From an uncultured delta proteobacterium (lineage in GTDB: Bacteria; Desulfobacterota; Binatia; UBA9968): DNA of 64,000 nucleotides. Of the stretch, positions 1-31,833 are shown piece after piece; positions within the stretch are counted from its first letter, which is position 1, and each line of letters opens with the position of its first letter. The notes beneath the pieces were generated by a model, which did not search any database, was not told the origin of the DNA, and saw only the letters and a list, made by a program, of their open reading frames with translations. The position numbers were made by a program, and so were the translations under genes. The DNA is taken from contig CAVTUQ010000015.1 in NCBI GenBank assembly GCA_963737905.1, forward strand, positions 1-64,000. Reading direction: 5' to 3'.

Positions 1-54
1 TTATGGTCAGGCCGCAAAGGACTCCGTATCGATAACTGCGGCGAATTGGAAAAC

Positions 55-738
55 TCAAGCGCAGAGTTTTTGCAGCAAAGACAGGTCGACTTCCTCCAGG
101 CTCTTTACAACCGCGTTAGCTTCCTGCAATAGCTCCGGCGGGTGAGAATTGCTTACCGCGAGGCATTTCATTCCGGCCCGGAGGGCACCGCGGATTCCTT
201 CCTTCGAATCCTCAATGACGACGACAATCAGCGGCATCGATAGGGCCGCGATTGCCAACTTGCGTATTGAGACGTCCGAGAGTCTTAAGAAAGATTTCCG
301 GTTCGGGTTTCCGTGATTTACGTCTTCGGCGCTTATGATCACCGTGAAATGGTTTAATAAACCGGCGGTGGAGAGAATCGTGTCAATCTCTTGTCTTAAA
401 GCCCCAGAAGCGACCGCCAGCGGGAGCACCGGCACAAGCGTGGTGACCAATTTTTCGACGCCCGGGAAAATCCTCACCTTGTTTCGAATCTCGCTCTGAT
501 AATAAGCTGCTTTACGATCAATTAGCCCAGCCAGCAGTTTTTCATCGAGTGATCGCCCGTGTTCTCCATAGGCGGCGGTGAAGGCCCCCCGGTCATCGAA
601 ACCGAGGTAGCGGGCATAGTAGTCTGCCTCGGTCAAATCGATTCCCTCCTCGCCGAGCACGCGCCGAAATAGCTCAAAATGGATGGGCTCGTCGTCGACA
701 ATGATGCCGTTGAAGTCGAAAATAATCGCTCGAAGCAT
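55..738 (-). CDS. HAD-superfamily phosphatase (beta-phosphoglucomutase-like)
   Basis: IIFDFNG motif I, VAS motif II, IEDS..GI motif IV. The expected GKPEPEIF segment is in another frame between compensating indels at ~310 and ~225. Confidence 0.85.
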   Translation of the reverse strand: MLRAIIFDFNGIIVDDEPIHFELFRRVLGEEGIDLTEADYYARYLGFDDRGAFTAAYGEHGRSLDEKLLAGLIDRKAAYYQSEIRNKVRIFPGVEKLVTTLVPVLPLAVASGALRQEIDTILSTAGLLNHFTVIISAEDVNHGNPNRKSFLRLSDVSIRKLAIAALSMPLIVVVIEDSKEGIRGALRAGMKCLAVSNSHPPELLQEANAVVKSLEEVDLSLLQKLCA

Positions 739-797
739 GCTTCACGATTACAGAAATCATCTTTCGTTTCAACGGAAGATGCGGTAGAAGAAGAGGC

Positions 798-1337
798 ATG
801 GCAGCAGAAGAACCTCATCACCACACTCATGGCCATATCGAATATCGCTTTTGCCCGCGCTGCGGGGGCGATCTGGAAAAGCGTGTTGTAAAAGCGACGG
901 AGCCCAGGCGGCTTGTCTGCTTAAACTGTTCGTTTATCTTCTATCAGGATCCTAAGGTGGTGGCCGGAACTATATTCGCTTTAGATGGAGGAATAGTCCT
1001 GTTGAAGCGAGACGTAGAGCCCGCAATGGGGAAGTGGGTCTTTCCGGGAGGGTATGTAGACCGTGGCGAAAGCGTTCAGGAAGCCGCGATTCGTGAGACA
1101 AAGGAAGAATCTCGTCTGGACGTAAAGCTAGGGCCGCTCCTCAACGTTTATTCGTACCCGGGCTCTCCTAATATAATCGTCGTTTACGCCGCGCAGGTGG
1201 TAGGCGGGGATTTGGCAGCGGGCGATGAATCCATCGAAGCGAAGGTTTTTACACCGACGGAAATTCCCTGGAACGATCTCGCATTCGATAGCACGAAAGA
1301 TGCCCTGAACGATTACATCAGGCTTTACCTGAAGTAG
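798..1337 (+). CDS. NUDIX hydrolase with N-terminal zinc ribbon
   Basis: FCPRCG...CLNC plus Nudix box GGYVDRGESVQEAAIRETKEE. Confidence 0.9.
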   Translation: MAAEEPHHHTHGHIEYRFCPRCGGDLEKRVVKATEPRRLVCLNCSFIFYQDPKVVAGTIFALDGGIVLLKRDVEPAMGKWVFPGGYVDRGESVQEAAIRETKEESRLDVKLGPLLNVYSYPGSPNIIVVYAAQVVGGDLAAGDESIEAKVFTPTEIPWNDLAFDSTKDALNDYIRLYLK

Positions 1338-1361
1338 AGAATGGGGTAATAGAGTGCTGAT

Positions 1362-1395
1362 TGATGGAGTACGGCTTCAACCCAATACTCCATCA
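1362..1395. repeat. Intergenic palindrome TGATGGAGTA/TACTCCATCA
   Basis: Perfect 10-bp inverted repeat 1362-1371 / 1386-1395 with degenerate related flanks. Confidence 0.6.
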
Positions 1396-1420
1396 CTCCA
1401 ATCTTGTTTAGGAGGTTTTT

Positions 1421-1888
1421 ATGACGATGCCAACTGTGGGGACGAAAGCTCCGGAGTTTACCCTACCCGTTTCGCGCGAGCAAAATGTTTCCTTGAAGGA
1501 TTACCACGGCAAGAAGAACGTTGTCCTGGCATTTTATCCGCTCGACTTCACTGGCGGCTGAGAGAGGGAGCTGAGCGGCCTCGAAAAAGATCGGAAAGAA
1601 TTCGAGGCCCGCAATGCTCAGGTCTTGAGCATCAGTGTTGACTCGCCATTTTCACACAAAGCTTTTGCCGAAAAGATGGGTGGTATCAATTTTCCGATGC
1701 TGTCGGATTTTTGGCCCCACGGGGCCGTTTGCCAGCTTTACGATTGCCTCCGGCCCCAAGGGATGCCAAAGCGAGCCGTCTTCATCATCGACCAGCAAGG
1801 CATGATTCGCTTTGCGAAAGAATACGATAAGGGCATCCCAGAAAACGCCGAGCTATTGGCGGAACTCGACAAGATCAAGCAAGGCTAA
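1421..1888 (+). CDS. Selenocysteine-containing peroxiredoxin (AhpE/AhpC-TSA family), 155 aa
   Basis: RBS GGAGG, ATG 1421, [15 protein letters not shown]...[16 protein letters not shown](1559-1561)-ERELSG...[12 protein letters not shown]. The TGA is at the peroxidatic Cys of PxxxTxxC and in frame with ORF 1625-1888. Confidence 0.9.
1571..1621 (+). promoter_or_regulatory. Putative bacterial SECIS hairpin
   Basis: CTGAGC/GCTCAG and GGCCTCGAA/TTCGAGGCC stems starting 10 nt after the TGA, with GG in the apical loop. Confidence 0.7.
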
Positions 1889-1915
1889 TCAGAACACTGC
1901 TGAAGAAAATATATA

Positions 1916-1949
1916 AAAGGCCCGCTACCGGATCCGATAGCGAGCCTTT
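1916..1949. terminator. Probable bidirectional intrinsic terminator
   Basis: AAAGGC-C-CGCTA ... TAGCG-A-GCCTTT hairpin between convergent genes. Confidence 0.55.
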
Positions 1950-1969
1950 AAATCTTGAAAACGACGCTT

Positions 1970-2275
1970 CTAGACGTCGACCAGTACGTCGTCTTCTTCG
2001 ACTTTGACCTCGTATTTTTGTGTTGGTAAGTCGGGAACAAGTTCGTTGGCGCCAGTAGTCACGTCGTAACGCCAACCGTGCCATGGGCAGATTACGGTCT
2101 TGCCGTCCAGCTCGCCTTCGCCCAAAGGGCCGCCGCGATGGGCGCAGGTATCGTTGATCGCGTAAAAGCTGCCGTCCACGTTAAAAACCGCAACGAATTT
2201 GCCGTCAATATCGATGCTCTTGCCGCAGCCCGCCTTCACGTCGCTGGTCTTACAAACTTTTACGAAGTTAGCCAT
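1970..2275 (-). CDS. Rieske [2Fe-2S] ferredoxin
   Basis: CAHRGGPL...CPWHG Rieske motifs. Confidence 0.9.
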   Translation of the reverse strand: MANFVKVCKTSDVKAGCGKSIDIDGKFVAVFNVDGSFYAINDTCAHRGGPLGEGELDGKTVICPWHGWRYDVTTGANELVPDLPTQKYEVKVEEDDVLVDV

Positions 2276-2338
2276 TCTCTGGGTTCCTTTCTTAGCCGTT
2301 ACAAATTTCTGATTACTATACGTACTTGAGGGTGGGAT

Positions 2339-3452
2339 TCAAGAGGAAGAAACCGTCTCCTCTTGGATACACACAAACGGCAGGCTGGTGACCTTTGCAC
2401 CGACCAAGATTCCGTTGTGGTTGACGGTAAGACTCGTATCCGGGTTCCAATAGTCTTTGTTCACATAACCGAGTGCGATGGGTTTGCCCAGAGCTAGCGA
2501 ATGGACGGAGCTAGTAATCGTCCCAACCGGTTTGTCGGCAAATACGATCACGTCTCTCGGACTCGCCAAGTCTTGACCTTCGAGGGATAAGCCCACGAGC
2601 TTCTTATTGACATGTCCTCGCGAGCGTATGCGCTCGACGACCTCTTGACCCAGGTAACAGCCTTTCGTAAAGCTCACGGCGTCATCGAGCCCCACTTCCA
2701 GAAGTAAATTGTCCTCTGTAAAGTCGACGCCATAACGCGGGATGCCGGCTTCGATGCGCAGGATATCTTGTGCTTCCTCCCCGACCCAAGCTGCGGAAAA
2801 CTGTTTGCCCGTTTCGGTCAGCCGCTGAGCGATGTTTGGAAAGTTCGCTATCGGCGCGATCAGATCAAACCCCGTTTCCCCTGTGTGGCTTGCGTAGACA
2901 ACACAAATAGCCGTCGCATCGATGTTGACCATGGCGTGCTGTAAAGAATGCCCCGGTAATTCAGCTTGGCCGACAAGTTTGCGGAGCAGAGCTTCAGATT
3001 GGGGACCCTGGACGGAAAGCGTCGCATACTCATTGGAGCGGTCGGCGATCTCGACTTCGTCCGCGACCAGATAATGATTGAGATGAGTCAGAATCTTTTC
3101 TTTCAAGGTGCTCGAAAAAATCCAAATAAAACGAGTTCATCGCGCAGAGAACCCGAACGTCAGCTATGACTTTCCCTTGCTGGGTCAAAAGGGTCGCGTA
3201 CTGTCCGGTGAATGGTTCTAGAGCCCGGAGGTCGTTGGACAGCATACCCTGGAGAAACGACAGACGGTCTGGCCCCGTTACCTGCAACAATCCGCGGTGG
3301 GAAAGATCCATCAAGCCGACAGCCGAGCGAACCGCTCCATATTCCGCAGCGGAGTTGCCAAAGTGAGCGGGTAGGAGCCAACCGTCCCGCTCTACAAACT
3401 CCGCGCCATTGGATTTGTGAAATGTCGACAAAATAGATTGCTTCACCATCAA
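2339..3452 (-). CDS. ygfZ: Folate-binding YgfZ/GcvT-family protein (frameshift ~3110)
   Basis: KGCYLGQE signature in ORF 2339-3106; GcvT-like N-terminus in ORF 3030-3452; shift near a T6 run. Confidence 0.8.
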
Positions 3453-3544
3453 ACAAATATACCGTCAACCGCGCCGGTTGACAATGTGATCTACCATCGC
3501 CTTAAATGGCTTTAACCATCTCCACGTTGGTCTTCAGGGTCACT

Positions 3545-4456
3545 ATGGCTAAACTAAAAGGCGATCTGGATCTGCACAAGCTCGAGGTGTTTTACTGGGT
3601 TGCGGAATTAAAAAGCTTCTCCGAAGCCGCGGATCGACTGGCATTGAAACAGCCAACGGTGAGTGCTCACATCCAAGAGCTGGAAAAAACACTCTCGGGT
3701 AAGCTGTTTTATCGGATTCCCGGCAAAGTTAGCCTGACTCCTTTGGGGCTACTTCTGCAGGCGAAAGCCAAAAACCTGTTGGCCTTCAAGAGGGAAACGG
3801 TGGCCGCGGTTGAACAATTTCACGGCACCCTCAGCGGTGAACTCTGGATCGGCGGAAGTAATATCCCCGGCGAATATCTTTTGCCACCCAAGCTCGGCAG
3901 ATTTATTAAGAAGTATCCTCGGGTAAAGCCGATACTTCGCATCGGCGATTCGGCGAGCATCGTTGAAGAGGTACTCGATGGCAAGGTAGAGATCGGATTT
4001 GTCGGCTTCAAGAATGCAGACGCCCGACTCTTTTTCGACAAGATTTGGCAAGACGAAATGGTGCTCACGGTTTCCAAGCACCACCCTTGGAGTCGTCGCA
4101 AGTTCGTTCAGTTGACCGACTTGCGCTCGCAAAACTTTATTTCCCGCGAACCGGGTTCGGGTACCCTGGATTCGTTTCGCCACCTGATGACAAGGAAGCA
4201 TCGATCCAAAGAGGATCTGCTTCATGTGGCCATGGAACTTGGCAGTACTGAAGCGGTGAAAGAAGCGCTGATTTCGGGATGTGGCGTTTCCATTTTGTCC
4301 CGCACCTCGATTAGCCGCGAATTGGCCGATGGCGTACTCGTAACTGTTGGCATTCACGGATTGAAGATGAAACGGAACTTCTACGAGGTTTGCTATAAGC
4401 AGCGACCCTTATCCCCGGTTGCGCAGGTTTTCCGCCGTTTCTTGAGAAACAAATAG
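3545..4456 (+). CDS. LysR-family regulator (CysL-like / selenium-metabolism-associated type)
   Basis: HTH SFSEAADRLALKQPTVSAHIQELE; GGSNIPGEYLLP, SREPGSGT, ELGSTEAVK motifs. Confidence 0.88.
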   Translation: MAKLKGDLDLHKLEVFYWVAELKSFSEAADRLALKQPTVSAHIQELEKTLSGKLFYRIPGKVSLTPLGLLLQAKAKNLLAFKRETVAAVEQFHGTLSGELWIGGSNIPGEYLLPPKLGRFIKKYPRVKPILRIGDSASIVEEVLDGKVEIGFVGFKNADARLFFDKIWQDEMVLTVSKHHPWSRRKFVQLTDLRSQNFISREPGSGTLDSFRHLMTRKHRSKEDLLHVAMELGSTEAVKEALISGCGVSILSRTSISRELADGVLVTVGIHGLKMKRNFYEVCYKQRPLSPVAQVFRRFLRNK

Positions 4457-4492
4457 CTCCTGTTTTGCCTAGTGAAACGGCCGCCTTCCCTC

Positions 4493-4529
4493 ATAGAAAA
4501 TAACTATTTTGTGAATAGTTAATAGAAAT
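4493..4529. promoter_or_regulatory. LysR-type operator ATAG-N7-CTAT-N7-ATAG-N7-AAAT
   Basis: ATAG 4493, CTAT 4504, ATAG 4515 with exact 7-nt spacers upstream of bcp-egtB. Confidence 0.7.
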
Positions 4530-4613
4530 ATTCGCCGAATCCTATTGATCGATTCTCCTAGGATGGTAGAAAAGAAGAGGACGAATGAATTAATAATCCA
4601 CGGAGGTGATGTT

Positions 4614-5081
4614 ATGAGTAATCTGGAAGGACAGAAGGCCCCGGCTTTTAATTTGGAAGGTAGTGACGGCAAAAAACATGCTCTCGCCGATTACGCTGGC
4701 AAAAACGTAGTGCTCTATTTTTATCCCAAAGACGATACCCCCGGCTGCACAAAAGAAGCCTGCGGATTTCGTGATTCCATCGAAACGGTAACCCAGGCCA
4801 ATGCCGTGGTTCTAGGAGTGAGCAGGGATAATATCGACTCGCACAATCAGTTTATTTCAAAGTTCAATTTGCCGTTTACCCTTCTATCTGACCCTCAAGT
4901 AGAGGTCATGAAGGCCTATGGCGCCTGGGGACCGCGGCAAAATGCCCAGGGCGAAACCGTTGAGGGTCCGATTCGCTCCACGGCGCTTATTGGACCCGAT
5001 GGCACCGTCAAGCGCCATTGGATTCCCGTGGCCAACGCCGAAGCTCATCCCGCGGAAGTTTTGGAGTCCTTGAAGAAATAA
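4614..5081 (+). CDS. bcp: Peroxiredoxin BCP/PrxQ
   Basis: YFYPKDDTPGCTKEAC; RBS GGAGGTG before ATG 4614. Confidence 0.92.
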   Translation: MSNLEGQKAPAFNLEGSDGKKHALADYAGKNVVLYFYPKDDTPGCTKEACGFRDSIETVTQANAVVLGVSRDNIDSHNQFISKFNLPFTLLSDPQVEVMKAYGAWGPRQNAQGETVEGPIRSTALIGPDGTVKRHWIPVANAEAHPAEVLESLKK

Positions 5082-5097
5082 CCAGGGCGGAGCACCA

Positions 5098-6456
5098 ATG
5101 AAGAGCGCGGCATCACGAGAATTCGACGAAATCAGAGCGCAATACGAAGCGCGTTACCTTTCGGCTTGGGCCAGAAGCGATGAGTTGTTCGGTCTGATTC
5201 GCGATGACCGGCTGTTGGCCAAGCCGATAGTGTGGCGCCATCCGTTCCTTTTCTACGTGGGTCACCTGCCAGCGTTTTCTTGGAATCAGATTTGCGGCAG
5301 CATCCTCAAATGGCCGTCGCCTGATCCACATTTCGACGACCTCTTTTGCCGAGGTATTGATCCGGATGTCGATACCGGTGAGTGTCACTGGCATCCGGAA
5401 GTTCCCGACGAATGGCCTACCTTGAAGCAAACGAAGGCCTATCGCGACCGAGTGCGCGGAGCAATTTTGGAATCCCTTGATGTGGTGCCGCGCGAATTCT
5501 CCAACGATGTCATGGCGCAGGGTGGAAGAGTGTTCGACATGGTGCTCGAGCACGAATATATGCACCAGGAGACGCTCCTGTATATGATGCAGGAGCTGCC
5601 GCTTGAGAAAAAGAAACGCCCGTCCCGGGCGCCGCATTATTTGTTTCAGGGGGCACCGATTTCACGGCCGATTCATATCCCGCGAGGGAACGCGTCGTTG
5701 GGCGCCCGATTCAACGAAATCGATTTCGGATGGGACAACGAATTCTCCGCAATCACCGTTGATGTGCCCGCCTTTACCATCGACTCATTACCGGTGACAA
5801 ACGGCGAGTTCTTCGAGTTCTTCGAGTCCGGCGGTTACGATAATGAGCGCTTTTGGAAGCCCGAGGATTGGAAGTGGAAGCAACTTGAAAACAAGCGACA
5901 TCCGAATTGTTGGGTGAAGCAGGATGACGAGTGGGTCTATCGGGCAATGTTCGATCATTTGCCGCTGTCGAAGGCGGTTAGTTGGCCGGTATATGTTAGC
6001 CTTGCCGAGGCTCGAGCCTTCGCGCGTTGGCGGGGCAAAAGACTACCGTCGGAAGCGGAGTTTCACCGTGCTGCTTTCTATGGCCCTGACGGAAGGGAGA
6101 GCTCTTATCCTTGGGGCGAAGCAGAACCGACGGCGCGCCACGGCAATTTCGATTTTGCTTCTTGGTCTCCGGTTCCGGTGGGATCGCATCCTGCAGGAGC
6201 CAGCCGGTGGGGAGTGGCGGAACTTATCGGCAACGGATGGGAGCTGACGGATACCCCATTTGCACCTTTCCCCGGCTTCGGCCCGTACATCACCAGCTAT
6301 CCGGACTACTCCAAAGATTTTTTCGACGGCAAGCATTTTGTCGTCAAAGGCGCCTCCTGGGCCACAGCTGCGGAATTGATTCGTCCGAGCTTTCGCAATT
6401 GGTATCAGGTTCATTATTCTTATGTGTTCGCGAAGTTTCGCTGCGTATCGAGTTAG
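5098..6456 (+). CDS. egtB: EgtB/Egt1-family non-heme iron sulfoxide synthase (DinB + FGE-sulfatase domains)
   Basis: RHPFLFYVGH, RGIDPDVD, HEYMHQETLLYM iron motif, RLPSEAE, DFFDGKH, SFRNWYQ. Confidence 0.85.
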   Translation: MKSAASREFDEIRAQYEARYLSAWARSDELFGLIRDDRLLAKPIVWRHPFLFYVGHLPAFSWNQICGSILKWPSPDPHFDDLFCRGIDPDVDTGECHWHPEVPDEWPTLKQTKAYRDRVRGAILESLDVVPREFSNDVMAQGGRVFDMVLEHEYMHQETLLYMMQELPLEKKKRPSRAPHYLFQGAPISRPIHIPRGNASLGARFNEIDFGWDNEFSAITVDVPAFTIDSLPVTNGEFFEFFESGGYDNERFWKPEDWKWKQLENKRHPNCWVKQDDEWVYRAMFDHLPLSKAVSWPVYVSLAEARAFARWRGKRLPSEAEFHRAAFYGPDGRESSYPWGEAEPTARHGNFDFASWSPVPVGSHPAGASRWGVAELIGNGWELTDTPFAPFPGFGPYITSYPDYSKDFFDGKHFVVKGASWATAAELIRPSFRNWYQVHYSYVFAKFRCVSS

Positions 6457-6483
6457 GCGTTCCTAATCGAAAGAGGGGATCTC

Positions 6484-6765
6484 ATGAAGGCGACCTGGGA
6501 AGATACGATCGTTGCCGAGTCCGATAAAACCGTTGTCGTAGAGGGCAATCACTATTTCCCGCCAGATTCGATCAAACGGGAATATTTTTCTCCGAGCAAC
6601 ACTCATACCACTTGTCCTTGGAAGGGCGTCGCAAGCTACTACCACGTCCAGATCGGCGATAGATCTAATCAGGATGCCGCCTGGTATTACCCCGAGCCGA
6701 AGGAAGCGGCTAAATCGATCAAAGATCATGTCGCCTTTTGGCGCGGCGTGAAAGTCTCCGAATAG
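6484..6765 (+). CDS. DUF427 family protein
   Basis: VVEGNHYFPP, TTCPWKGVASYY, AAWYYPEP. Confidence 0.9.
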   Translation: MKATWEDTIVAESDKTVVVEGNHYFPPDSIKREYFSPSNTHTTCPWKGVASYYHVQIGDRSNQDAAWYYPEPKEAAKSIKDHVAFWRGVKVSE

Positions 6766-6785
6766 CTCTCCCACCATCCAATACC

Positions 6786-7580
6786 GTGTTGAAGCTCGCC
6801 TCGTGCATGGCGGAAAACGGCGAGGCTTTTTGCCAAAACGTCGCCGCTTACATTCACACCCGACTGGGAATCGAAACCGTCTACGTTAACGATATTCCTT
6901 GGCAAGAGCGCGAACGGCTTTTCGACGAAGGCGATATTCAAATCCTTTGGCTCTGCGGACTTCCATACGTTCACAAAGCCGATCTGCGAGAGAGCGCCCC
7001 GGAGCTACTCGCTGTTCCGGTTCCGGCGGGCCCTCGGTATTGCGGGAAGCCGGTATATTTCTCCGACGTCATCGTAAGAGAAGAGAGTCCCTTTCGAAGT
7101 TTTGAGGAACTGCGTGGAGCGGTGTGGGCTTACAACGAACCTCGGTCGCACTCTGGCTACAACGTCGTTCGAGCCTATCTATCCGGACTGGGTGAAATTC
7201 GAGGCTTCTTTGGAGAGGTCGTGGAGTCGGGTGCTCATGCGTTGTCTTTGAGGATGATTCTCGCTTCTCAAGTCGACGGCGCTGCCATCGACAGTACGGT
7301 CTTGGAGTGGGCCATTGCGAAAAGACCAGAGGTAAGTGAACAGATCCGTGTCATCGCAACATTGGGCCCCAGCCCGATTCCTCCCTGGGTGATATCGAGA
7401 AGAGTTTCGGTTAGCTTGCGCAGTGCGTTGCGCGCGTTGCTCCTTTCGATGCAGTCTGACCCGCGCGGCAGGGGTATACTCGCCCAGGCCAACCTCGACC
7501 GCTTCGTGGAAGCGCAAGACCACGACTACGACCCGATTCGCATTATGGCCAGAAAAGCCGAGCAAGTTTCGCTTGCCTAG
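6786..7580 (+). CDS. PhnD/SsuA-family substrate-binding-fold protein
   Basis: LCGLPY, YNEPRSHSGY, DGAAIDS, GPSPIPP motifs; start uncertain. Confidence 0.8.
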   Translation: MLKLASCMAENGEAFCQNVAAYIHTRLGIETVYVNDIPWQERERLFDEGDIQILWLCGLPYVHKADLRESAPELLAVPVPAGPRYCGKPVYFSDVIVREESPFRSFEELRGAVWAYNEPRSHSGYNVVRAYLSGLGEIRGFFGEVVESGAHALSLRMILASQVDGAAIDSTVLEWAIAKRPEVSEQIRVIATLGPSPIPPWVISRRVSVSLRSALRALLLSMQSDPRGRGILAQANLDRFVEAQDHDYDPIRIMARKAEQVSLA

Positions 7581-7649
7581 CTTGTTGTGCTACATCATTG
7601 ACATTAGGCAAGTCATGTACGGCTGAACAACTAAAGGAGGAATCGCTCG

Positions 7650-8123
7650 ATGGCAAATCTGGAGGGAAAGAAAGCCCCAGCCTTCAACCTTGAGGGCAAT
7701 GACGGCAAGAAGCATTCGCTGGAGGATTACCAAGGAAAAACGGTGGTGCTATATTTTTATCCGAGGGACGATACACCGGGATGCACGAAGGAAGCCTGCG
7801 GCTTTCGCGACCTGGGGGCGGCCTTGAAAAAAAGCAATGCGGTTGTATTAGGCGTAAGCAAGGACGGCATCGAGTCGCACAAGAAATTTGCGGCCAAATA
7901 CAAATTACCGTTTACTCTCTTGTCCGATCCGAATATCGAGGTGATGAAGAAATATGGGGCGTTTGGCAAGAAACTGATGTACGGCAAGACCGTGGAAGGT
8001 ACGATCCGTTCCACGGTGGTCATCGGCCCCAAAGGGGATATCATCAAACACTGGCCGACCGTAAAGAAAGCTGAAGCCCATCCGGAAGAAGTCTTAAGCT
8101 TCCTAAAAACCAAATCAGAGTAA
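7650..8123 (+). CDS. bcp: Peroxiredoxin BCP/PrxQ (second paralog)
   Basis: YFYPRDDTPGCTKEAC; RBS AGGAGG. Confidence 0.92.
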   Translation: MANLEGKKAPAFNLEGNDGKKHSLEDYQGKTVVLYFYPRDDTPGCTKEACGFRDLGAALKKSNAVVLGVSKDGIESHKKFAAKYKLPFTLLSDPNIEVMKKYGAFGKKLMYGKTVEGTIRSTVVIGPKGDIIKHWPTVKKAEAHPEEVLSFLKTKSE

Positions 8124-8250
8124 TTGTTCCACGCTAGAGCTGAGAGAAGCGACCGGCCGCTCGCTGGTTCTTTATGGTATGAAATTGACTCGCAACGTGA
8201 GTTGTTATAAGCATCATTGAGGAATCCTATAAGCTGAAGAGGGAGGGGCT

Positions 8251-9345
8251 ATGAAACGAAGAGATTTTCTAAAGCAGGGGCTAACGATTTCTGCCGGGTT
8301 GGCTCTTGGTGGCATCCCAAAATTAACCCGTTTGGCAAACGCCGATGACCCGACGAAATGGCGTACCTTTGAAGTCACCACCAAAGTCGAAGTCATCAAT
8401 GCGGTGGGTGCGCCGCGGGCTTGGGTTCCGTTACCGGTTCTTAATAACACGGATTATTTTAAACGCGACGGCGACAAATGGACCGGGAACTACAAGAATG
8501 TACGCTCTGTGCAATACGATAAATACGGTACGGGTTTACTATTCGCCGAGTGGTCGCCATCGGAGAAAGCCCCTGTGTTGGAAGTCACGAGCCGTTTTAT
8601 GACTCGCGACCGCCACGTGGATTTAAGCAAGAAGCCTGATTCGGCGGTTAACGAAGACAAGGCCACTTTGGATTATTTTCGAAGACCGACCAAGCTTATT
8701 CGCACCGATGGCATCGTGGCGGAAACATCCCGTCAGATCACCACCGGATATAAGAACGACGTTGACAAAGCTCGGGCGATTTACGAATGGATCGTAGACA
8801 ACACTTTTCGTGATGCTAACGTTCGTGGCTGCGGCATCGGTGATATCTCGACCATGCTCCGGACCGGCTATCTCGGCGGCAAGTGTGCTGATTTAAATGC
8901 GCTCTACGTTGGCCTTGCGCGGGCGGCGGGCTTGCCGGCGCGTGACGCCTATGGAGTGCGCTGCGCCACATCGTCAGAATTCAAGAGTCTCGGCGCTGCG
9001 GATAACATTACCAAGGCCCAACACTGCCGAGCTGAGGTCTATCTCGCGGGTTTCGGTTGGGTGCCGGTAGACCCGGCCGACGTGCGCAAGGTGGTGTTGG
9101 AAGAGAACAAGCCGGACAAGCTTCCACTTGACGATCCCAAAGTTAAAAAGGCGCGTGCCAAACTGTTCGGCGCTTGGGAGATGAACTGGCTGCTCTATAA
9201 CTATTCTCATGATGTGAAGTTGCCCAACTCCAACGGGCCGGAAGTCGGGTTTCTCATGTATCCGCAGGCCGAGGAAGCTAACGGACGGCGCGATAGTCTC
9301 GATCCGGATAACTTCAAATACACGATCAAGGCAAAGGAAATTTAG
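8251..9345 (+). CDS. Tat-exported transglutaminase-like cysteine protease domain protein
   Basis: MKRRDFLK twin-arginine signal; triad motifs GKCADLN, QHCRAE, VDPAD. Confidence 0.85.
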   Translation: MKRRDFLKQGLTISAGLALGGIPKLTRLANADDPTKWRTFEVTTKVEVINAVGAPRAWVPLPVLNNTDYFKRDGDKWTGNYKNVRSVQYDKYGTGLLFAEWSPSEKAPVLEVTSRFMTRDRHVDLSKKPDSAVNEDKATLDYFRRPTKLIRTDGIVAETSRQITTGYKNDVDKARAIYEWIVDNTFRDANVRGCGIGDISTMLRTGYLGGKCADLNALYVGLARAAGLPARDAYGVRCATSSEFKSLGAADNITKAQHCRAEVYLAGFGWVPVDPADVRKVVLEENKPDKLPLDDPKVKKARAKLFGAWEMNWLLYNYSHDVKLPNSNGPEVGFLMYPQAEEANGRRDSLDPDNFKYTIKAKEI

Positions 9346-9430
9346 CGCAAACCTAATTCTTTAGAGTTTGGAAATTGTGAGGCCTCCACTGCGTTGGGGG
9401 CCTTGCTGCATTTAAGGAAAGGAAAAAGAC

Positions 9431-9727
9431 ATGAAAACTTTGACACTGGTTGGTTTAATTTGGTCCGTGTTGTCGTTCGCCCCGGCACATGCGCTCACCG
9501 TGGATGAAATCATCAAGCTCAAGAAAGCCGGAGTGAGCGATACGACCATCGACTTGCTGATCGAGAGAGAGGGCAGCGCCAGGGCTGCAGGGACCTGGCG
9601 CACGAAAGACGGTTGGATCATTCATACAACCGAAGTGCGTGCACCCCGTCCCGCCACCGAGTACGACAACAGAGGGTCCTATCCGATTTCCGTCTCTCCG
9701 GAAATTTATTCGGGTCGCAGGTGGTAG
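9431..9727 (+). CDS. Small secreted hypothetical protein
   Basis: Signal peptide ending AHA; LTVDEIIKLKKAGVSD motif; purine-rich RBS. Confidence 0.7.
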   Translation: MKTLTLVGLIWSVLSFAPAHALTVDEIIKLKKAGVSDTTIDLLIEREGSARAAGTWRTKDGWIIHTTEVRAPRPATEYDNRGSYPISVSPEIYSGRRW

Positions 9728-9739
9728 TAGATTGGGCGA

Positions 9740-10597
9740 TCAACTCTGGATCGCCGTCTCGATGGCCCGCGCCACGTAGACATGAGTCAAATGAGCGCGG
9801 TACTCGCTGGAACCGTTAATGTCCTCGATGACATCCACGTTGCGGGTCGATTCCGCGGAGGCAACTTCAATCAGCTTCGAGTCAAGTTTCTGCCCGGTGA
9901 GCATTCGCTCGACCCGGTCGGCTCGATAAGCTTTATCCGTGACGCCTGTGATCCCCAGGGCGATTCGGTTGCACAGGCCCGATGGATCCAGCGCGATGCG
10001 CACGGCGACGCCGACCACGGCAAATCCCGACGATCGCGGCGCCGCTTTTAAATAGGCGGTCTTATCGTCGCCCGTGACGGGTACTTTGAGTGCCGTCACG
10101 ACTTCGTCTGGTTCTAGAACACTCATCAGAAGGCCCAGAAAAAAATCCTCGCACTTGACCCAACGCTCGCCACTGGGGCCGGCAATTCCAATCTCCGCAT
10201 CCAGCGCCATAATCGAAGGGGGCCAATCTCCGGCCGGGTCAGCGTGAGCGATACTGCCGCCGATGGTGCCGCGATTGCGCACTTGCACGTCGGCGATCGT
10301 GGTCGCGGTTTGCGGCAGCAGTGGACATTTCTTTTTGAGCAGTTCGGAATCTTCGATCTGAGCATGGGTGACAAGGGCGCCGATGATCAGGTGATTACCT
10401 TCTTCGGTAATCGAATCGAGGCCGGGTATGCGCCCGATGTCGAGGATGTATCCCGGTTTCGATAGCCGCATCTTCATCAGCGGCAGCAAGCTCTGGCCGC
10501 CGGAAAGAATTTTTACATCGTCTTTGTGCGCGGACAGATATTTTACCGCGTCGCTGAGCGAGCGCGGAGCGTAGTACTCAAACGAACCGGGGATCAT
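9740..10597 (-). CDS. Xanthine dehydrogenase family FAD-binding subunit (CoxM-like)
   Basis: LSGGQSLLP, RNRGTIGGS, HADPAGD. Confidence 0.9.
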   Translation of the reverse strand: MIPGSFEYYAPRSLSDAVKYLSAHKDDVKILSGGQSLLPLMKMRLSKPGYILDIGRIPGLDSITEEGNHLIIGALVTHAQIEDSELLKKKCPLLPQTATTIADVQVRNRGTIGGSIAHADPAGDWPPSIMALDAEIGIAGPSGERWVKCEDFFLGLLMSVLEPDEVVTALKVPVTGDDKTAYLKAAPRSSGFAVVGVAVRIALDPSGLCNRIALGITGVTDKAYRADRVERMLTGQKLDSKLIEVASAESTRNVDVIEDINGSSEYRAHLTHVYVARAIETAIQS

Positions 10598-10599
10598 GA

Positions 10600-13033
10600 C
10601 TAAAAAGACCTCCGCTCTTTTTCAGGATTATGATTCGCCAGCCGCCAGACCAATTCGGGAGTAAGGGGAAGGTCGCAGACCTTTACGCCGAATGGTTTGA
10701 GCGCGTCCTCCACCGCGCTGGCGATGGCCGCGGGTGAGGGGATCGCCGCTCCTTCGCCGGCAGCTTTTTGTCCCAGGGATGTGAAGGGAGAAGGGGAGGG
10801 CCGGTGAATGACTTCCACCCGCGGGGTTTCTGCGGTGGAGCACTTGCCATAGTCAAGATAGGTAATCGTCAATGGCTGTCCCTCTGCGCTGTATATAAAA
10901 CCTTCGCCGAGAGCGACCGCAATCCCATGGGCGGCGGAGCCATAGACTTGCCCGTTGACCACATCCGGGTTGATCACCGTGCCATTGTCTCCGACGATGA
11001 GATAGCGCAGCACTTCGACTTTGCCCGTGGCTTTGTCGACTTCGACGACGGCGGCGTGGGCGCCGGCTGAGAAGGTAAACTGCGCGCGCACCAGGCGATC
11101 GGCGTCGGGGATGATATTCGGCTTGGCGTGGGGAAACATGTAGTAGAATGTCGACTCCAGTCCCGGTTCCATATCGTCGGGAATGAGATGCTGATTGTTG
11201 TAGGCGATGCGGCCAAGTTCGGCGAAGGTGATTTGTTTCGCCGCGGCGCCGGGTACCTTTACGACACTGTCTTCGATGGTCAATTCGGACGGGTCCACCT
11301 TGAGATTGAACGCCGAGAGCTTGAGAATCTTTTCCCGCAGGCGGGTGGCGGCGCCGTGGATCGCGCCGATGTCGTAGAGATGAAAGTTATTACCGCTATT
11401 CGCCGCGGCCACGCCCCATGCAGACAAGTCACTATCGAAGGGAATGGCGGTGCTGATCTTATCTGGCGTGGAACCGAGAATCTCCGCCGCTACTTGGGCC
11501 GTGGTGGTCTCATGAGCTTGGCCGCAGTTGGGCGATCCGAGGTGAAGCGACAGGCTGCCGTTCTTCTCCAATTTGATCTTAGCGCCGTTAATGCCGCCGG
11601 AACCGGGCGGTTCTTTCATCTCTGGGAAGATCGCCATATCGCGGGCGGCGTTTCGCCCGCCGGGTTCGACGCCGATGACGATACCAATGCCCATGAGCTT
11701 TCCTTGCTCGCGTGCATTTTTTTGCTGATCGCGCAGCTTGTCGTAATCAATCTTTTCCAGCAGGGTAGAAAGCAATCCCGGATAGTCGCCGCTGTCGTAC
11801 ACATTACCGCTGATCGTGCGGTAGGGCATTTGGTTGGGTTGGATAAAGTTCTTACGACGCACTTCGATAGGGCTCAGCTCCAGCGCTTGAGCCACCCGAT
11901 CCATCATGCGTTCCCAGATATAGCACATGCCGGGCTTGCCGATGCCGCGGTTGGGAATGACCGGGCATTTATTCGTCACCACCGCATGGCCGATCATGTG
12001 AATGGCCGGTGTCCGATAGGTGTTGGAAAGATTGTTGAGCTTGTTGGTGAAATGGATCGTCAAGGTGCTGATCGAGCCGCCGACATCGTCATATTCCTTG
12101 AAGCGAAGACCGAGGACGGTGCCATCATTCTTGACTGCGGCCTCGGCTTCGAACTCCTGAGCGCAGGCATGGCCGCCGGCCATCATATGCTCGCTCCGAT
12201 CTTCGATCCATTTGACCGGCCGGCCGGTTTTCATCGCCAGCAAGCGACACCAAGACAACGTATTTGCGAATCAAATGAATCTTTTGACCGAAGCCGCCGC
12301 CGACATCCGGAATGATCACGCGAATATCTTGCAGGCCTAAGGCTTCGCGCAAACCGTCGTAAATGACTTCCGGCACTTGCGCTGTCACCCAAACGATCAA
12401 CCGTTTGCTCGCTGCGTCGTAGGAAGCAATGACGTTGAACGGTTCCAGCGGCGTCGAGCTGTAGCGATGAATCTTTAAGTTTTCCTTGACCACACGGTCG
12501 GCGGATTTAAACGCGGCCTCGATGTCACCGTATTGAAGCGATCCTTGCCAGGCGAGGTTGGTACCCAATTCATCAAATAATGTTGCCGACGACGGCTTGA
12601 TCGCTTCGCGCACGTCGACCACGGCTCGGAGCGGCTCGTAGTCGACTTGAATCAGCTCTAGCGCGTCTTCCGCCGTGCCACGGTCGCGCGCCGCCACCGC
12701 GCCGAGGGGCTCGCCGACGTAACGGACTTTTTCGACGGCGCTGGCATATTCGTCGACGGGACGCTTAAGACCGGCGGCATACCTTCCCGGTTTAAAGGGT
12801 TTGGTAAGTTGCTTCACATCCTCCGGCGTGATCACCGCCATCACATTCGGGTTTTTGAGCGCTTCGGAGGGATCGACGGAATTAATCTTCGCGTGGGCGT
12901 GGGGGCTCCGCAAAATCATCGCCTGGAGCATACCGGGTAGGCGGAAATCATCCGTATAGAGACCCCGGCCCGTAACGTGACGGGGACCTTCCTTGCTCCG
13001 GGTGCGCGCACCGATGTATTTTGTGTCAGCCAT
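10600..13033 (-). CDS. Xanthine dehydrogenase family molybdopterin subunit (frameshift ~12242)
   Basis: LRSPHAHA and DVGGGFGQK in ORF 12125-13033; RPVKWIEDRSE and KAAGEG in ORF 10600-12258; one extra base at TCGCTTGCTG. Confidence 0.85.
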
Positions 13034-13056: not shown

Positions 13057-13199
13057 AAATCCGAAATTCCAATATCGAAATCCGAAACAAACGGAAAAGC
13101 CAAATCCGAATAACAAAATTCAAAACACGGCAGGTTTCAGATATTTGGATTTTGAGCATTTAGGATTGTTTCGAATTTAGGATTTCGAATTTCGGATTT
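13057..13199. repeat. Periodic 7-mer (AAATCCG-like) imperfect inverted repeat element
   Basis: AAATCCGAAATTCCAATATCGAAATCCGAAACAA ... TTGTTTCGAATTTAGGATTTCGAATTTCGGATTT. Confidence 0.75.
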
Positions 13200-13659
13200 G
13201 CGCCTTTGCTGCTTCCTTTACGGCTTCAACGATCTGCACGTAGCCGGTGCACATACAAAGATTGCCAGCCAATGCTTTGCGAATCTCTTCTTCGGATGGA
13301 TTTGGATTACGCTGCAGGAGGGCATGGCTGGTCATTACCATGCCCGGCGTGCAGTAGCCGCATTGAAAAGCATAATGCTTGACGAACGCTTCCTGGATCG
13401 AATTCAGCTCACCGTCTTTTGCCAGACCTTCGACCGTGGTGACTTCGCGGTCATCCGCTTGCACGGCGAAATGAAGACAGGATTTGACGACTCTGCCATC
13501 GAGCAGCACGGAGCAGGCGCCGCACTCGCCGACGACACAGCCGACGTGGGTGCCGGTGAGCCCGATATTCTCGCGCAGAAAGTGCGAGAGCAGGAGACGC
13601 GGCTCGACGTCTTCCTCGTACAGACGCCTGTTAATCGTAACGCGAATAGTCTGTTTCAT
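13177..13659 (-). CDS. (2Fe-2S) subunit, CoxS-like
   Basis: GCVVGECGACSV, QCGYCTPG, GNLCMCTGY. Confidence 0.92.
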   Translation of the reverse strand: MKQTIRVTINRRLYEEDVEPRLLLSHFLRENIGLTGTHVGCVVGECGACSVLLDGRVVKSCLHFAVQADDREVTTVEGLAKDGELNSIQEAFVKHYAFQCGYCTPGMVMTSHALLQRNPNPSEEEIRKALAGNLCMCTGYVQIVEAVKEAAKAQIRNSKS

Positions 13660-13850
13660 AGCCGGTTAAAGTAAACCGAGTAAACCCTCAGGTCAACTGA
13701 ACACCCTTCTCCTGCAAAAGGCGAAGCCTCAGTCTCTTGTCCGCTCCGAGATGATCTATTTCCTGCCATTTCTGAGATCGTGTCGCAATCCGCTCCGGAG
13801 GTGCAGAGATTGCTGAGCGATTGTACGTTGAGCCTGGACGGGAGGCCGAC

Positions 13851-14217
13851 CTACTCTTCCACCTGCGTGGTCGTGCTCCCTTTCGCGGTTAAAGCAATGT
13901 GAGAGAATGAGGAATCAGGCGTGGCCCCGTGCCAATGTTTCTCTTCCGCCGGAATGTGCACGACATCTCCCACGCTGATGACTTCCTGGTCGCGTTTCCG
14001 TGGCGATGATACCCTTGCCAGCGGTGACAAACAGCACCTGGTCGCTGCTATGGATGTGCATTTTGTTCCGTGCACCGGCGCTGAAATTGACGACGGCAAG
14101 ATTAAAGTCGTTGCTCATCTCAGGCGTTAGCAGCGTTTGTCGGGTCACGGGCCCGCCCGTGAACAAGGGACTATTCGCTGGTTCCGCGGGAATCGCGTCG
14201 GGTTTGAGTACCTTCAT
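13851..14217 (-). CDS. Cupin domain protein (frameshift ~13996)
   Basis: MHIHSSDQ in one frame, GDVVHIPAEEKHWHGA in the other. Confidence 0.8.
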
Positions 14218-14323
14218 TGGACTATCCTCCTTTGAGACTCTGGCTTTTCATGCAACTCTCAGTTTTGACTCTACTATTCTCATTTTAGCTTCTCCACAGC
14301 CCGAGGGGCCAGCCAGCATCTGA

Positions 14324-15214
14324 TCACCTTCGCCGCGCTTCTCTGGCCAATGCTTCAATGTAGTGTTGATCCGTCCCACAACAGCCGCCCAGAATGGTGA
14401 GATCGAATTCGCGTGCGCACGCGAATTCGTCTCGTGCCCAGGTCTGACAATCGGTTGCAGCCAGATGATTCAGTTTATCGAGTTCTTCGGGAGAGAGAGG
14501 TGATGCGTTCGCCTTCAATCCGCGAACGCGCGCAACGATACCCGGTCGTGCGGCACGCAAGGCTCGCAGTGCCGATTGCGCGTGCGTGGGGTAAAGACAG
14601 CCGATCATGTAGTGTTGCGGTGCCGGGGAAACGCCAGCATCGATAGACGCGATCGCTTCTGCGAGCGCAGTGCCGTCAAGCATCGTGCCGTCCGGGTGCA
14701 GCATCGGCGCCAGCGCATACGGCCGTCCGGTTTGTGCCATGGCGCGGGCGACGCCATATAGCTCCGAAAATGCCGGAAACGTCGGCGCGTAAAGCAGATC
14801 GACATTCCGTTCCGCATGCGTTTCCGCCTGCTCGCAATGATAAGCGAAGGCATCTTCCGCGTTCAGCGCTTCGCCAGGCGCATAACCATCCGAAGCCGGG
14901 CCGATTACCCCCGCAACAATAATCCGTGCGCCAGACGCTTGCTGTGCCACCTCGCGTACGAGTTCGACGGCCGCCGCATTGACCTTAACAACATCGTTTG
15001 TCCATTTGCGACTGGCGCGCCATGTCGGAGTGCCAAGCTGGATCGGTAATCCATATCGAACGCCCACGTCTGCGTAACTCTGATAGATCTGCCGAAGGAT
15101 GTCGCGTCCCGATTCATCTTCGAGCAATTCGAATGATTCGAAGTCGTCGATGGCGTACTTGAATTCATAGATGATTCGCGTCTCGATGCCGCCGTCAGTG
15201 AGTGTAATTGTCAT
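14324..15214 (-). CDS. Homocysteine S-methyltransferase family protein
   Basis: LTDGGIET N-terminus; IGC and GGCCGT zinc ligands. Confidence 0.85.
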   Translation of the reverse strand: MTITLTDGGIETRIIYEFKYAIDDFESFELLEDESGRDILRQIYQSYADVGVRYGLPIQLGTPTWRASRKWTNDVVKVNAAAVELVREVAQQASGARIIVAGVIGPASDGYAPGEALNAEDAFAYHCEQAETHAERNVDLLYAPTFPAFSELYGVARAMAQTGRPYALAPMLHPDGTMLDGTALAEAIASIDAGVSPAPQHYMIGCLYPTHAQSALRALRAARPGIVARVRGLKANASPLSPEELDKLNHLAATDCQTWARDEFACAREFDLTILGGCCGTDQHYIEALAREARRR

Positions 15215-28866: not shown

Positions 28867-29842
28867 ATGCATAGACATTCTACCGACACGGCTTGGTTTT
28901 TCTCCGTCCTTATTGCTGCACTCATTTTGTCGCTCTGTTTGGCGGGGGTTGCTGCGGCACAGGGCAACACCAGTTTTGGGACAGGAGCGCTTCAGAACAA
29001 CACCACGGGGAGTTTCAACACCGCCATCGGGCTCGATGCGCTCTTTAGCAACAGCACGGGCAGCCTTAACACCGCCACCGGAGTCAATGCGTTGCTTAAC
29101 AACACCACGGGCGACTTCAATACCGCCAGTGGAGCCAATGCGCTCTTTAACAACACCACGGGCAGCCAAAACACCGCCGTCGGGGTCCAGGCGCTCCAGA
29201 GCAACACCACGGGCTTCAACAACACCGCCAGCGGGGTCCAGGCGCTCTAGCACCCCCGCATGCGCTCCTTAGCAACACCACGGGCAGCAACAACACCGCC
29301 GTCGGGTCCACAGCCGATGTGTCTGCTGGGAATCTGACCAACGCTACTGCTATGGCTTTGGAGCCATCGTCGATGCCAACAATAAAATTCGCCTGGGAAA
29401 CCCTGCGGTCACGGTGATCCAAGGGCAGGTGGATTTTACTTTTAGCTCGGACAAGACCAAGAAGGAAAACTTCCAGCCGGTGGATGGAGAAGAAGTACTG
29501 GGAAAGATTCGTGGCGTTGAGCTGTCGAGCTGGAACTTCATTGGCCACGATCCTAAAGAGTTTCGCCACTATGGCCCCATGGCGCAGGACTTCTTTGCGG
29601 CCTTCGGCCACGACGAAGTCGGACAGATCGGCACGGAGACGACGATCAACTCAGGCGACCTGGCGGGGATTCTGATGATCGCCGTGCAGGCATTGGAGAA
29701 GCGCACGGCGGAGCTAAAACAGAAGGAGGCGCAGATTGCAGCGCTGGCGGCGCGGCTGGAAGCGCTGGAGTTGCGAATCGCTCCCATCCAGATAACAGCC
29801 GAGAAAAACTTCGGCGAGAAGATGGTCGACGTTATGCAGTAA
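28867..29842 (+). pseudogene. Secreted trimeric beta-helix adhesin/tail-fibre-like protein with S74 intramolecular chaperone, disrupted
   Basis: Signal peptide; 14-aa repeats AL.NNTTG..NTA.G; SSDKTKKEN...HYGPMAQDF; stop at 29248 and frameshifts to ~29355. Confidence 0.75.
28987..29310 (+). repeat. 42-bp coding tandem repeat
   Basis: About 7 units of GCGCTC...AACACCACGGGC...AACACCGCC. Confidence 0.8.
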
Positions 29843-31659: not shown

Positions 31660-31676
31660 GTTGTGGATTGGAGAGA

Positions 31677-31722
31677 ACTTCGGATCTGAGGGTTGGGGGT
31701 TCAAATCCCTCCGGGCGCGCCA
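31677..31722 (+). repeat. attR: duplicated tRNA-Arg 3' half
   Basis: Identical to 26720-26765. Confidence 0.93.
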
Positions 31723-31833
31723 ACCGATTCAAGTGTAACTCCGTCACCTCGCCGGCGGGTGTAAACATCTTACGATCTATCATTGACAGCGCTACACCCG
31801 AGCGTTAAAACAGGTGTTGTAATAATAGGATAA

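Follow-up and report, generated by a model that had tools for sequence, protein, structure and literature searches.

A LysR_Se-linked cluster of an EgtB-IV-like sulfoxide synthase, two peroxiredoxins, a DUF427 protein and an AioX-like protein: a candidate thiol-antioxidant operon of a Binatia-like bacterium

Background

Sulfoxide synthases of the EgtB, OvoA and SenA kinds carry an N-terminal DinB-like bundle followed by a C-terminal FGE-like domain, and signature residues have been assigned to several of them. The composite motif of EgtB type IV covers 17 positions, RxYH--DxHxHYxNWFx; at the histidine/hercynine site, OvoA carries (Y/F)-A (Kayrouz 2024, PMC11030361). AshA, which derives from OvoA, is a C2 enzyme that uses histidine, and the hydroxyl of its Y528 forms a hydrogen bond with the free amino group of that substrate (PMC13674229). 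Among regulators, the LysR_Se family was defined by Lin et al. 2015 (PMC5322559), and its archaeal orthologue HrsM represses operons for Cys-containing isoenzymes once selenium is available (PMC5322559). Here we describe a locus in a 64,000-nt stretch of DNA (the window; contig CAVTUQ010000015.1 of assembly GCA_963737905.1, from an uncultured delta proteobacterium) in which a gene for a LysR_Se-type regulator is followed by genes for a Bcp/PrxQ-type peroxiredoxin (bcp1), an EgtB-IV-like sulfoxide synthase (egtB), a DUF427 protein, a PhnD-fold binding protein and a second peroxiredoxin (bcp2), an arrangement of which our literature searches found no description. We read this locus, with moderate confidence, as a thiol-antioxidant operon of a Binatia-like bacterium that is controlled by the LysR_Se-type regulator and contains an EgtB-IV-type synthase. 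It presents a known kind of enzyme in a new operon setting, together with two uncharacterised partners.

Described relatives are also available for those two partners. AioX and ArrX are periplasmic proteins that pair with a sensor kinase and a regulator. The AioX pocket is formed by Y88, C106, Y131, S161, S163, H192 and D210, with C106 binding arsenite covalently (Badilla 2018, PMC5908839). DUF427 was assigned to the beta-tent fold by Lupas et al. (PMC4287342), and it is the commonest uncharacterised neighbour of such synthases, lying within 5 kb of 5.7% of them (Abbott 2026, Table 1, PMC13674229). That table also contains EgtD, CsdA-type PLP enzymes and Lpd/PRK06370 reductases, and DUF427 itself is not studied in the available text of that paper. 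In the literature searched, a link between DUF427 and ergothioneine was found in this table only.

Results

An EgtB-IV-like synthase in altered genomic company

The synthase is a protein of 452 residues with the EgtB/OvoA/SenA domain order, DinB_2 being matched at residues 22-159 and FGE-sulfatase at 192-450 (Pfam). Its best solved relative is EgtB-IV (8vih, 3.8e-60), and the three-His iron site (H56, H152, H156) and the catalytic Y401 align with both 8vih and 4x8b. The full set of motif residues, R47, Y53, H56, D88, H152, H156, Y401, Y404, N434, W435 and Y436, is identical to the EgtB-IV motif at every defined position save position 16, where Y436 replaces F. The cyanobacterial, OvoA-like EgtB type IV enzymes (8vih/8vig) therefore share with it the two-domain fold and the R-Y-H...D...H-x-x-x-H...Y...N-W signature, and differ in having Phe at that one position.

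Comparison with the other described enzymes places the protein in the same way. OvoA belongs to the same evolutionary branch, and its N-terminal model is the top NCBIfam match, but the window synthase ends at residue 452 with no C-terminal methyltransferase domain, has N-W where OvoA has (Y/F)-A, with W435 in place of the small residue (Ala) at motif position 15, and is not accompanied by ovoB. SenA/OvsA is marked by an xNEH--HR motif and by senB and senC, whereas the window synthase has R-x-Y-H..D and the window holds no glycosyltransferase or SelD-like gene. On these sequence features, we assign the protein to the OvoA-like/EgtB-IV branch of the DinB+FGE sulfoxide synthases. An earlier reading of the window, made from the letters alone (the sequence-only reading), had termed it Egt1-like; a sulfoxide synthase it is, though of the bacterial EgtB-IV/OvoA-like type and not of the fungal fused type.

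The genomic context of the family was examined in the best 80 loci (L001-L080) out of 590 relatives, with one genome per species scanned. A full-length synthase ORF (open reading frame) was present in 75 of these loci and lacking in 5; 74 were readable for the motif, the ORF of L067 having been wrongly chosen. The motif is common to all 74, with the iron ligands and the catalytic Tyr invariant. In 67 of the 80 loci egtD (Methyltransf_33) directly adjoins the orthologue, and for this reason the product of the window synthase is most likely of the ergothioneine type rather than a new chemotype. The undescribed thio- or seleno-histidine that the sequence-only reading had proposed is not borne out, as the signature is that of a hercynine-type EgtB-IV and is the same in the relatives that adjoin egtD.

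The 13 loci lacking egtD comprise nine that are syntenic with the window (L001, L002, L003, L011, L015, L017, L023, L039 and L041, from Binatia and 'delta proteobacterium' metagenome-assembled genomes, MAGs), two whose sequence ends just behind the gene (L076, L079) and two separate cases (L037, L048). A quick maximum-likelihood tree (IQ-TREE) recovers the window clade as monophyletic (SH-aLRT 99), with an egtD-bearing clade of Methylomirabilota, Rokubacteria and Verrucomicrobia as its sister (97). Only two alignment columns, a gap column and Y436, separate the window clade from the egtD-linked loci, which suggests an EgtB of the type-IV kind whose genomic company has changed and whose active site has not. 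Unlike most of its EgtB-IV-like relatives, the window synthase has no egtD nearby and is set between two peroxiredoxin genes together with the DUF427 and AioX-like genes. Two candidate features of the clade were considered and rejected: a remodelled active site, because of the small number of clade-specific columns, and a GxCHxH insertion at residues 94-99, because the egtD-linked sister clade has it.

Several observations weigh against an ordinary ergothioneine synthase. All scores lie below the NCBIfam equivalog cut-offs (EgtB TIGR03440, 225.8 of 360 bits; OvoA N-terminal TIGR04344, 270.8 of 400; SenA NF041186, 232.2 of 420). No egtD was found within +/-10 kb in any of the nine syntenic loci, nor in the window, where searches with tblastn and Pfam of 65 ORFs also found no egtC, egtE, ovoB, senB or senC, in agreement with the sequence-only reading. 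The absence of egtD would be accounted for if the clade had lost it and the enzyme took histidine or a less methylated histidine, giving 2-thiohistidine or a derivative to be processed by DUF427 and the PhnD-fold protein. Position 436 fits such a change of substrate: Tyr is fixed in the clade (121 of 121 sequences) and recurs in L048, also without egtD, while 63 of 66 egtD-linked loci have F. The best 120 protein matches, which are 68-89% identical and belong to a very large family, all carry N-W-Y. Y436 stands at +35 from the catalytic Tyr, the spacing of Y528 in AshA, a match that rests on residue spacing and not on alignment, 9PHY being absent among the matched solved structures. Because the AshA Tyr at the equivalent spacing binds the amino group of histidine, histidine stays conceivable as a substrate of the window synthase, although we think it doubtful. 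The hercynine-type residues N434 and W435 are unchanged, where OvoA and OvsA have Ala and AshA has H-F (PMC13674229), three Sorangium/Polyangiaceae loci combine Y436 with an adjacent egtD, and the clade-specific columns are only two. A different thio-histidine is thus improbable, and we prefer an ergothioneine-type product, for which hercynine would come from an egtD elsewhere in the genome or from uptake.

Two further arrangements were seen beside egtB-egtD pairs of the family. In 25-32 of the 80 loci (L004-L008, L014, L030, L034, L056 and others), the pair is accompanied by an ABC ATPase and a fusion of an EgtU/V-like OpuAC domain with a permease, so that this EgtB family often has its biosynthesis genes close to a betaine-type transporter. 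In L071 (11684-13372) and in three other loci, the gene after egtB-egtD encodes a pyridine-nucleotide disulfide oxidoreductase to which a response-regulator receiver is fused, which recalls the Lpd-type neighbours in Table 1 of Abbott 2026 and the DUF427-reductase fusions described below.

Linkage of the cluster across the window clade

The genes for LysR, Bcp1 and the synthase are linked in the window and in all nine syntenic loci. Downstream sequence is available for eight cases, the window and seven loci; seven of them carry the PhnD-like gene and bcp2, and four carry DUF427. In L011, L023 and L039 the order is bcp1-lysR-egtB-DUF427-PBP-bcp2, PBP being the PhnD-fold binding protein, with lysR and bcp1 swapped and the cluster retained. 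In the window, the five genes from bcp1 to bcp2 are co-oriented and separated by 17-70 bp, gaps that are compatible with co-transcription. A regulated unit, as the sequence-only reading had envisaged, is supported at the level of sequence by this linkage and by the position of the dyad described below.

The same linkage might be explained by close kinship, with a routine ergothioneine EgtB whose egtD lies elsewhere, and with bcp, DUF427 and PhnD-like genes that are unrelated housekeeping neighbours. Gene order is kept within one clade only, in which the EgtB proteins are 58-89% identical, and part of its conservation may be shared ancestry; bcp stands next to egtB in none of the 71 non-syntenic loci. 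DUF427 is absent from L001-3 and from L017, and L017 consists of lysR-bcp-egtB only, lacking the PhnD-like gene and bcp2 as well. Since DUF427 and the PhnD-like gene are each missing in some members, neither accessory gene is obligatory. Unlinked Egt genes are also common, 30% of such synthases having no egtD inside 5 kb (Abbott 2026, PMC13674229). These points weigh against a functional unit. On the other side, the linkage outlasts the lysR/bcp1 swap and the gain and loss of neighbours, the dyad follows lysR, DUF427 is tied to ergothioneine genes outside the clade (L024 and the EgtD fusions), L048 offers an independent pairing of the PhnD-like gene with egtB, and the short gaps fit co-transcription. 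Mere adjacency of ordinary genes is therefore rather unlikely in our view, and a thiol-antioxidant operon remains the preferred reading. Conservation of the neighbourhood, which had been put forward as a check, was found in the nine loci of the window clade and in that narrow clade only.

A LysR_Se-type regulator and a dyad that follows its gene

The LysR protein scores 260.3 against the curated cut-off of 250 of NF040786, 'selenium metabolism-associated LysR'. The NF040786 alignment starts at residue 21, and the true start is perhaps the ATG at 3545. Between lysR and bcp1 lies a tandem dyad, either half pattern of which has a single match in the 64 kb, where chance would give about 0.2, and the LysR operator that the sequence-only reading had reported is thus found, as a candidate. 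With at most one mismatch the dyad is present in 7 of 10 sequences (the window and the syntenic loci); L001-3 instead have CTCTAT-N5-ATAGAG. Exact matches in the 71 non-syntenic loci number 2 in 1.27 Mb. In L011, L023 and L039, the tandem dyad is found directly 3′ of lysR and 5′ of egtB. Because it follows lysR whether bcp or egtB is next, the dyad tracks the regulator gene and not a given downstream gene. This is good evidence, from sequence conservation, for a putative cis element, and the LysR protein is predicted to bind it.

The arrangement resembles that of HrsM in placing a LysR gene near a selenoprotein gene and next to genes for Cys-based paralogues of the same enzyme superfamily, which for HrsM are the Cys-hydrogenase operons. 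It differs from HrsM and LysR_Se in its presumed targets: instead of hydrogenases or Sec-synthesis genes, the regulator would act on peroxiredoxins and an ergothioneine enzyme.

In the classical arrangement, a LysR gene and its targets are transcribed divergently. The divergent neighbour of this lysR is ygfZ and not any of the proposed targets, a further point against the proposed regulation. In the 54-bp divergent gap between ygfZ and lysR, a perfect palindrome, GTCAACCG-CG-CGGTTGAC (3461-3485), overlaps a TTGACA -35-like hexamer. This palindrome has no relation to the ATAG/CTAT dyad and is possibly a second regulatory site.

DUF427 as a probable thiol-redox helper

The DUF427 domain scores 118.7 bits against a Pfam gathering threshold of 22.1. 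Its structural model (pLDDT 97.7) matches 3djm with a TM of 0.9, with further fold matches to Mis18-Yippee, YPEL5 and RIG-I RD (TM 0.54-0.69), in agreement with Lupas et al. (PMC4287342), who assigned the domain to the beta-tent fold. DUF427 thus shares its fold class with the MsrB, Yippee and CULT beta-tent proteins, but differs from them in having no zinc site, as described in that work, no significant sequence similarity and one Cys in a CPWKG loop. Conservation of this residue, Cys44, is 97% (271 of 278 related domains).

Outside the window clade, L024 has the order egtB-egtD-DUF427. Fusions of DUF427 were collected by a search for longer proteins that gave 168 matches, and the counts that follow refer to the best 120, which were listed; domain orders were re-checked with Pfam and NCBIfam in 1-3 members of most kinds other than the MauE and DsbD fusions. 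Fusions to EgtD form at least three clusters, one of them with 20 members, and score 400 against the TIGR03438 cut-off of 291 in the two scanned. DUF427 is further fused to a TIGR01976 cysteine-desulfurase-like PLP enzyme (at least two), to a flavoprotein disulfide reductase (at least three) and to thioredoxin, glutaredoxin or AhpC-fold domains (15 among the 120), as well as to ThiS (at least four), MauE (at least three) and DsbD (at least one). One FGE-sulfatase-DUF427 protein among the matches listed is perhaps a read-through artefact.

The fusions to EgtD, the PLP enzyme, the disulfide reductase and the thioredoxin-fold domains point to a thiol-redox role, and DUF427 is probably a thiol-redox helper of the ergothioneine pathway. 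Such a helper has a conceivable place in the pathway, as the C-S lyase (EgtE) releases an ergothioneine sulfenic acid that needs a reductant, DTT in vitro (Song et al. 2015, PMC4493562); the in vivo reductant proposed by Song et al. is 'natural thiols', with no enzyme assigned in the available text (PMC4493562). The partnership of DUF427 and its Cys with the synthase, part of the sequence-only reading, is made credible by the EgtD and redox fusions, the order in L024 and the co-occurrence in Abbott 2026.

DUF427 is also found fused to an MbnB/TglH/ChrH-type fragment and to ThiS-like sulfur-carrier domains (P0331, 19 members; P0246/P0249/P0262/P0272), which hint further at sulfur chemistry.

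A cytoplasmic AioX-like binding protein

The PhnD fold named in the sequence-only reading is correct and can be made more precise, the protein being AioX/ArrX-like and lacking a signal peptide. Its best matches in the PDB are AioX (3e-26) and ArrX. Six of the seven AioX pocket residues are retained, including the equivalent of the arsenite-binding Cys106, and Trp replaces Tyr88; the six retained residues are invariant in an alignment of 18 family sequences. Relatives are 252-301 aa long with no signal peptide, and the first beta-strand begins no more than about 10 residues away from any candidate start, the alternatives in the window being a TTG at 6738 and an ATG at 6807. Because the proteins begin right at the first strand, the family appears to be cytoplasmic. 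It differs in this from the periplasmic AioX and ArrX, and also in its genetic partners, since no histidine kinase or response-regulator gene lies near the PhnD-like gene of the window. Look-alikes in the ESM Atlas were generic 'phosphonate SBP' clusters only. An independent second case is provided by L048 (Planctomycetota), where a PhnD-like gene is divergently paired with an egtB lacking egtD.

L023 also has, downstream of its operon, a second PhnD homologue of the secreted type (13122-14728; Phosphonate-bd 1.3e-72) together with an ABC ATPase. Unlike the cytoplasmic protein, this paralogue is a true transporter component.

Peroxiredoxins and a possible selenium response

The gene at the start of the locus is predicted to encode a selenocysteine (Sec)-containing peroxiredoxin. 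An uninterrupted frame, of 155 aa, results only when the TGA at codon 47 is decoded as U, and all 6 orthologues retain both this TGA and the frame beyond it. A SECIS-like hairpin with a conserved 7-bp stem lies 20 nt 3′ of the UGA, with one compensatory pair (CG<->UA) in 3 of 7 sequences (RNAalifold). The features by which bacterial selenoproteins are recognised, an in-frame UGA at the catalytic Cys, conservation in orthologues and a 3′ hairpin, are all present. The protein is not a PrxU equivalog (81 bits, cut-off 270), and a scan of positions 1-10000 against Rfam at E<=1 gave zero matches to either riboswitch or SECIS families. LysR_Se regulators are expected in organisms that decode Sec and possess SelD; here a selenoprotein gene lies nearby, and the window contains none of selD, selA and selB.

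Bcp1 and Bcp2 are paralogues, 67% identical, with PGCTKEAC in both. The PrxQ/Bcp type is marked by an AhpC/TSA fold whose peroxidatic and resolving Cys stand in PxxxTxxC...C. The two proteins match AhpC-TSA at 1e-38 to 1e-40 and score 119.9 (Bcp1) and 134.3 (Bcp2) against PRK09437, which has a cut-off of 140. The ORF of bcp1 opens at 4545, and GGAGG stands 7 nt before the ATG at 4614.

The Sec-peroxiredoxin gene is 1.6 kb from the LysR_Se gene. As HrsM represses Cys isoenzymes when selenium is available (PMC5322559), a Cys-based backup at low selenium, suggested in the sequence-only reading, is reasonable by analogy. L011, L023 and L039, however, have no Sec-peroxiredoxin, which counts against this idea, because a simple selenium switch cannot hold for every member of the clade.

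Selenium might alternatively enter the product itself, with a selenoneine-like compound made by the synthase, a selenium oxyanion handled by the AioX-like protein and the unit switched on by LysR_Se when selenium is available. The regulator family and the nearby selenoprotein gene are in line with this, as are a weak match of the PhnD-like protein to a 'putative selenate SBP' model (57.6 bits, cut-off 250) and the retained Cys that in AioX binds arsenite covalently. The synthase, however, does not have the SenA/OvsA motif (xNEH--HR...), senB and senC are not in the window, three members have no Sec-peroxiredoxin, and the closest relatives are sulfur enzymes beside egtD. A selenium product is very unlikely on this evidence, and a sulfur-based antioxidant remains the favoured outcome.

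Layout of the locus and its surroundings

Genes were called from ORFs with Pfam (15 + 50 ORFs) and NCBIfam, and each of the genes listed in the sequence-only reading was found where it had been placed (Table 1). A hairpin after bcp2 likely marks the end of the operon; this is weak evidence, because terminator-like sites in the region are no commoner than in shuffled sequence.

Table 1 Predicted features of the locus in the window
Feature	Position	Strand	Basis
Sec-containing peroxiredoxin, AhpC/TSA family	1421..1888	+	Pfam AhpC-TSA 2.9e-38
UGA (Sec) codon of the peroxiredoxin	1559-1561	+	in-frame TGA, codon 47
SECIS-like hairpin	1579..1607	+	RNAalifold, 7 sequences
Rieske [2Fe-2S] ferredoxin	1970..2275	-	Pfam Rieske 6.7e-22
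YgfZ/CAF17-like folate-binding protein, frameshift-split	2339..3452	-	GCV_T; TIGR03317 79.5 vs cut-off 49
LysR_Se-type regulator	3506..4456	+	NF040786; HTH_1 + LysR_substrate domains
Tandem T-N11-A-type dyad, candidate LysR operator	4493..4518	.	ATAG-N7-CTAT-N7-ATAG
Bcp/PrxQ-type peroxiredoxin 1	4614..5081	+	Pfam AhpC-TSA 4.8e-38
EgtB-IV-like non-haem-iron sulfoxide synthase	5098..6456	+	DinB_2 + FGE-sulfatase
DUF427, beta-tent fold, single Cys44 in CPWKG	6484..6765	+	Pfam PF04248 9.6e-35
Cytoplasmic AioX/ArrX-like PhnD-fold binding protein	6786..7580	+	Pfam Phosphonate-bd 1.7e-40
Bcp/PrxQ-type peroxiredoxin 2	7650..8123	+	Pfam AhpC-TSA 2.4e-40
Weak terminator-like hairpin after bcp2	8148..8169	+	consensus scan

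The ygfZ-like gene has the N- and C-terminal halves of GCV_T in two overlapping frames (overlap ~3030-3106), and in L017 it is one ORF of 364 aa; the split is a frameshift or an assembly indel. A Mo-pterin large subunit of the CO-dehydrogenase/xanthine-dehydrogenase type at 10600-13033 (minus strand) is likewise in two frames (10600-12258 and 12125-13033), and the egtB genes of L023 and L039 are broken similarly. These frame breaks suggest indel errors of long-read MAG assemblies.

The Rieske ferredoxin gene adjoins ygfZ in all nine syntenic loci. Genes for a zinc-ribbon Nudix hydrolase (798-1337) and a HAD hydrolase (55-738) stand beside the Sec-peroxiredoxin gene and are kept in seven of the nine. 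Farther along, the window from 22913 to 56816 looks like an aromatic-acid (de)carboxylation island, with five UbiD-family decarboxylase genes among solute-binding proteins, cupins, NMT1_3 proteins, an amidohydrolase and a second Mo-hydroxylase set. Within this range lies a DDE_Tnp_1_4 transposase (30347-31735, plus strand; 5e-135). The stretch before it has ORFs that match no family, as well as a fragment of Peptidase_S74, 'chaperone of endosialidase' (29414-29839).

Discussion

Given the linkage of these genes in the window clade, the locus can be read as one system, in partial support of the interpretation that preceded this analysis. The LysR_Se-family regulator would bind the tandem ATAG/CTAT dyad just 3′ of its own gene and from there control bcp1, the egtB-like gene, DUF427, the aioX-like gene and bcp2. 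The synthase would join cysteine to C2 of hercynine in the ergothioneine pathway, and the two PrxQ/Bcp proteins would remove peroxides. DUF427 would most likely reduce the sulfenic acid left by the C-S lyase or re-reduce oxidised ergothioneine, in either case with thioredoxin-fold partners, while the AioX-like protein would bind a small oxyanion or thiol-reactive ligand through its conserved Cys/Ser/His/Asp pocket. When selenium is scarce and the Sec-peroxiredoxin cannot be made, LysR may raise the Cys- and sulfur-based defence, by analogy with HrsM.

To our knowledge, neither a C-S lyase nor a reductant of the sulfenic acid intermediate has been identified in most bacteria that carry egtB together with egtD, and we know of no enzyme assigned in bacteria to the recycling of oxidised ergothioneine. 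A more specific proposal, speculative and on balance unlikely, is that DUF427 is an 'ergothioneine redoxin', which would hold the betaine in an aromatic-rich beta-tent pocket, reduce ergothioneine sulfenic acid or disulfide with Cys44 and couple ergothioneine to both Bcp proteins, the selenium-sensing LysR raising the system when the Sec-peroxiredoxin cannot be made. In a bolder variant of this proposal, the Y436 enzyme would use histidine, and no EgtD would be needed.

Conclusions

The fusions of DUF427 and its place in a compact operon make the function of this widespread domain a directly testable question. The locus also brings to notice AioX-like binding proteins that form a cytoplasmic family and share a conserved Cys pocket. 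If the proposed reading is true, the unit would be the first link of a LysR_Se regulator to a sulfur-based small-molecule antioxidant.

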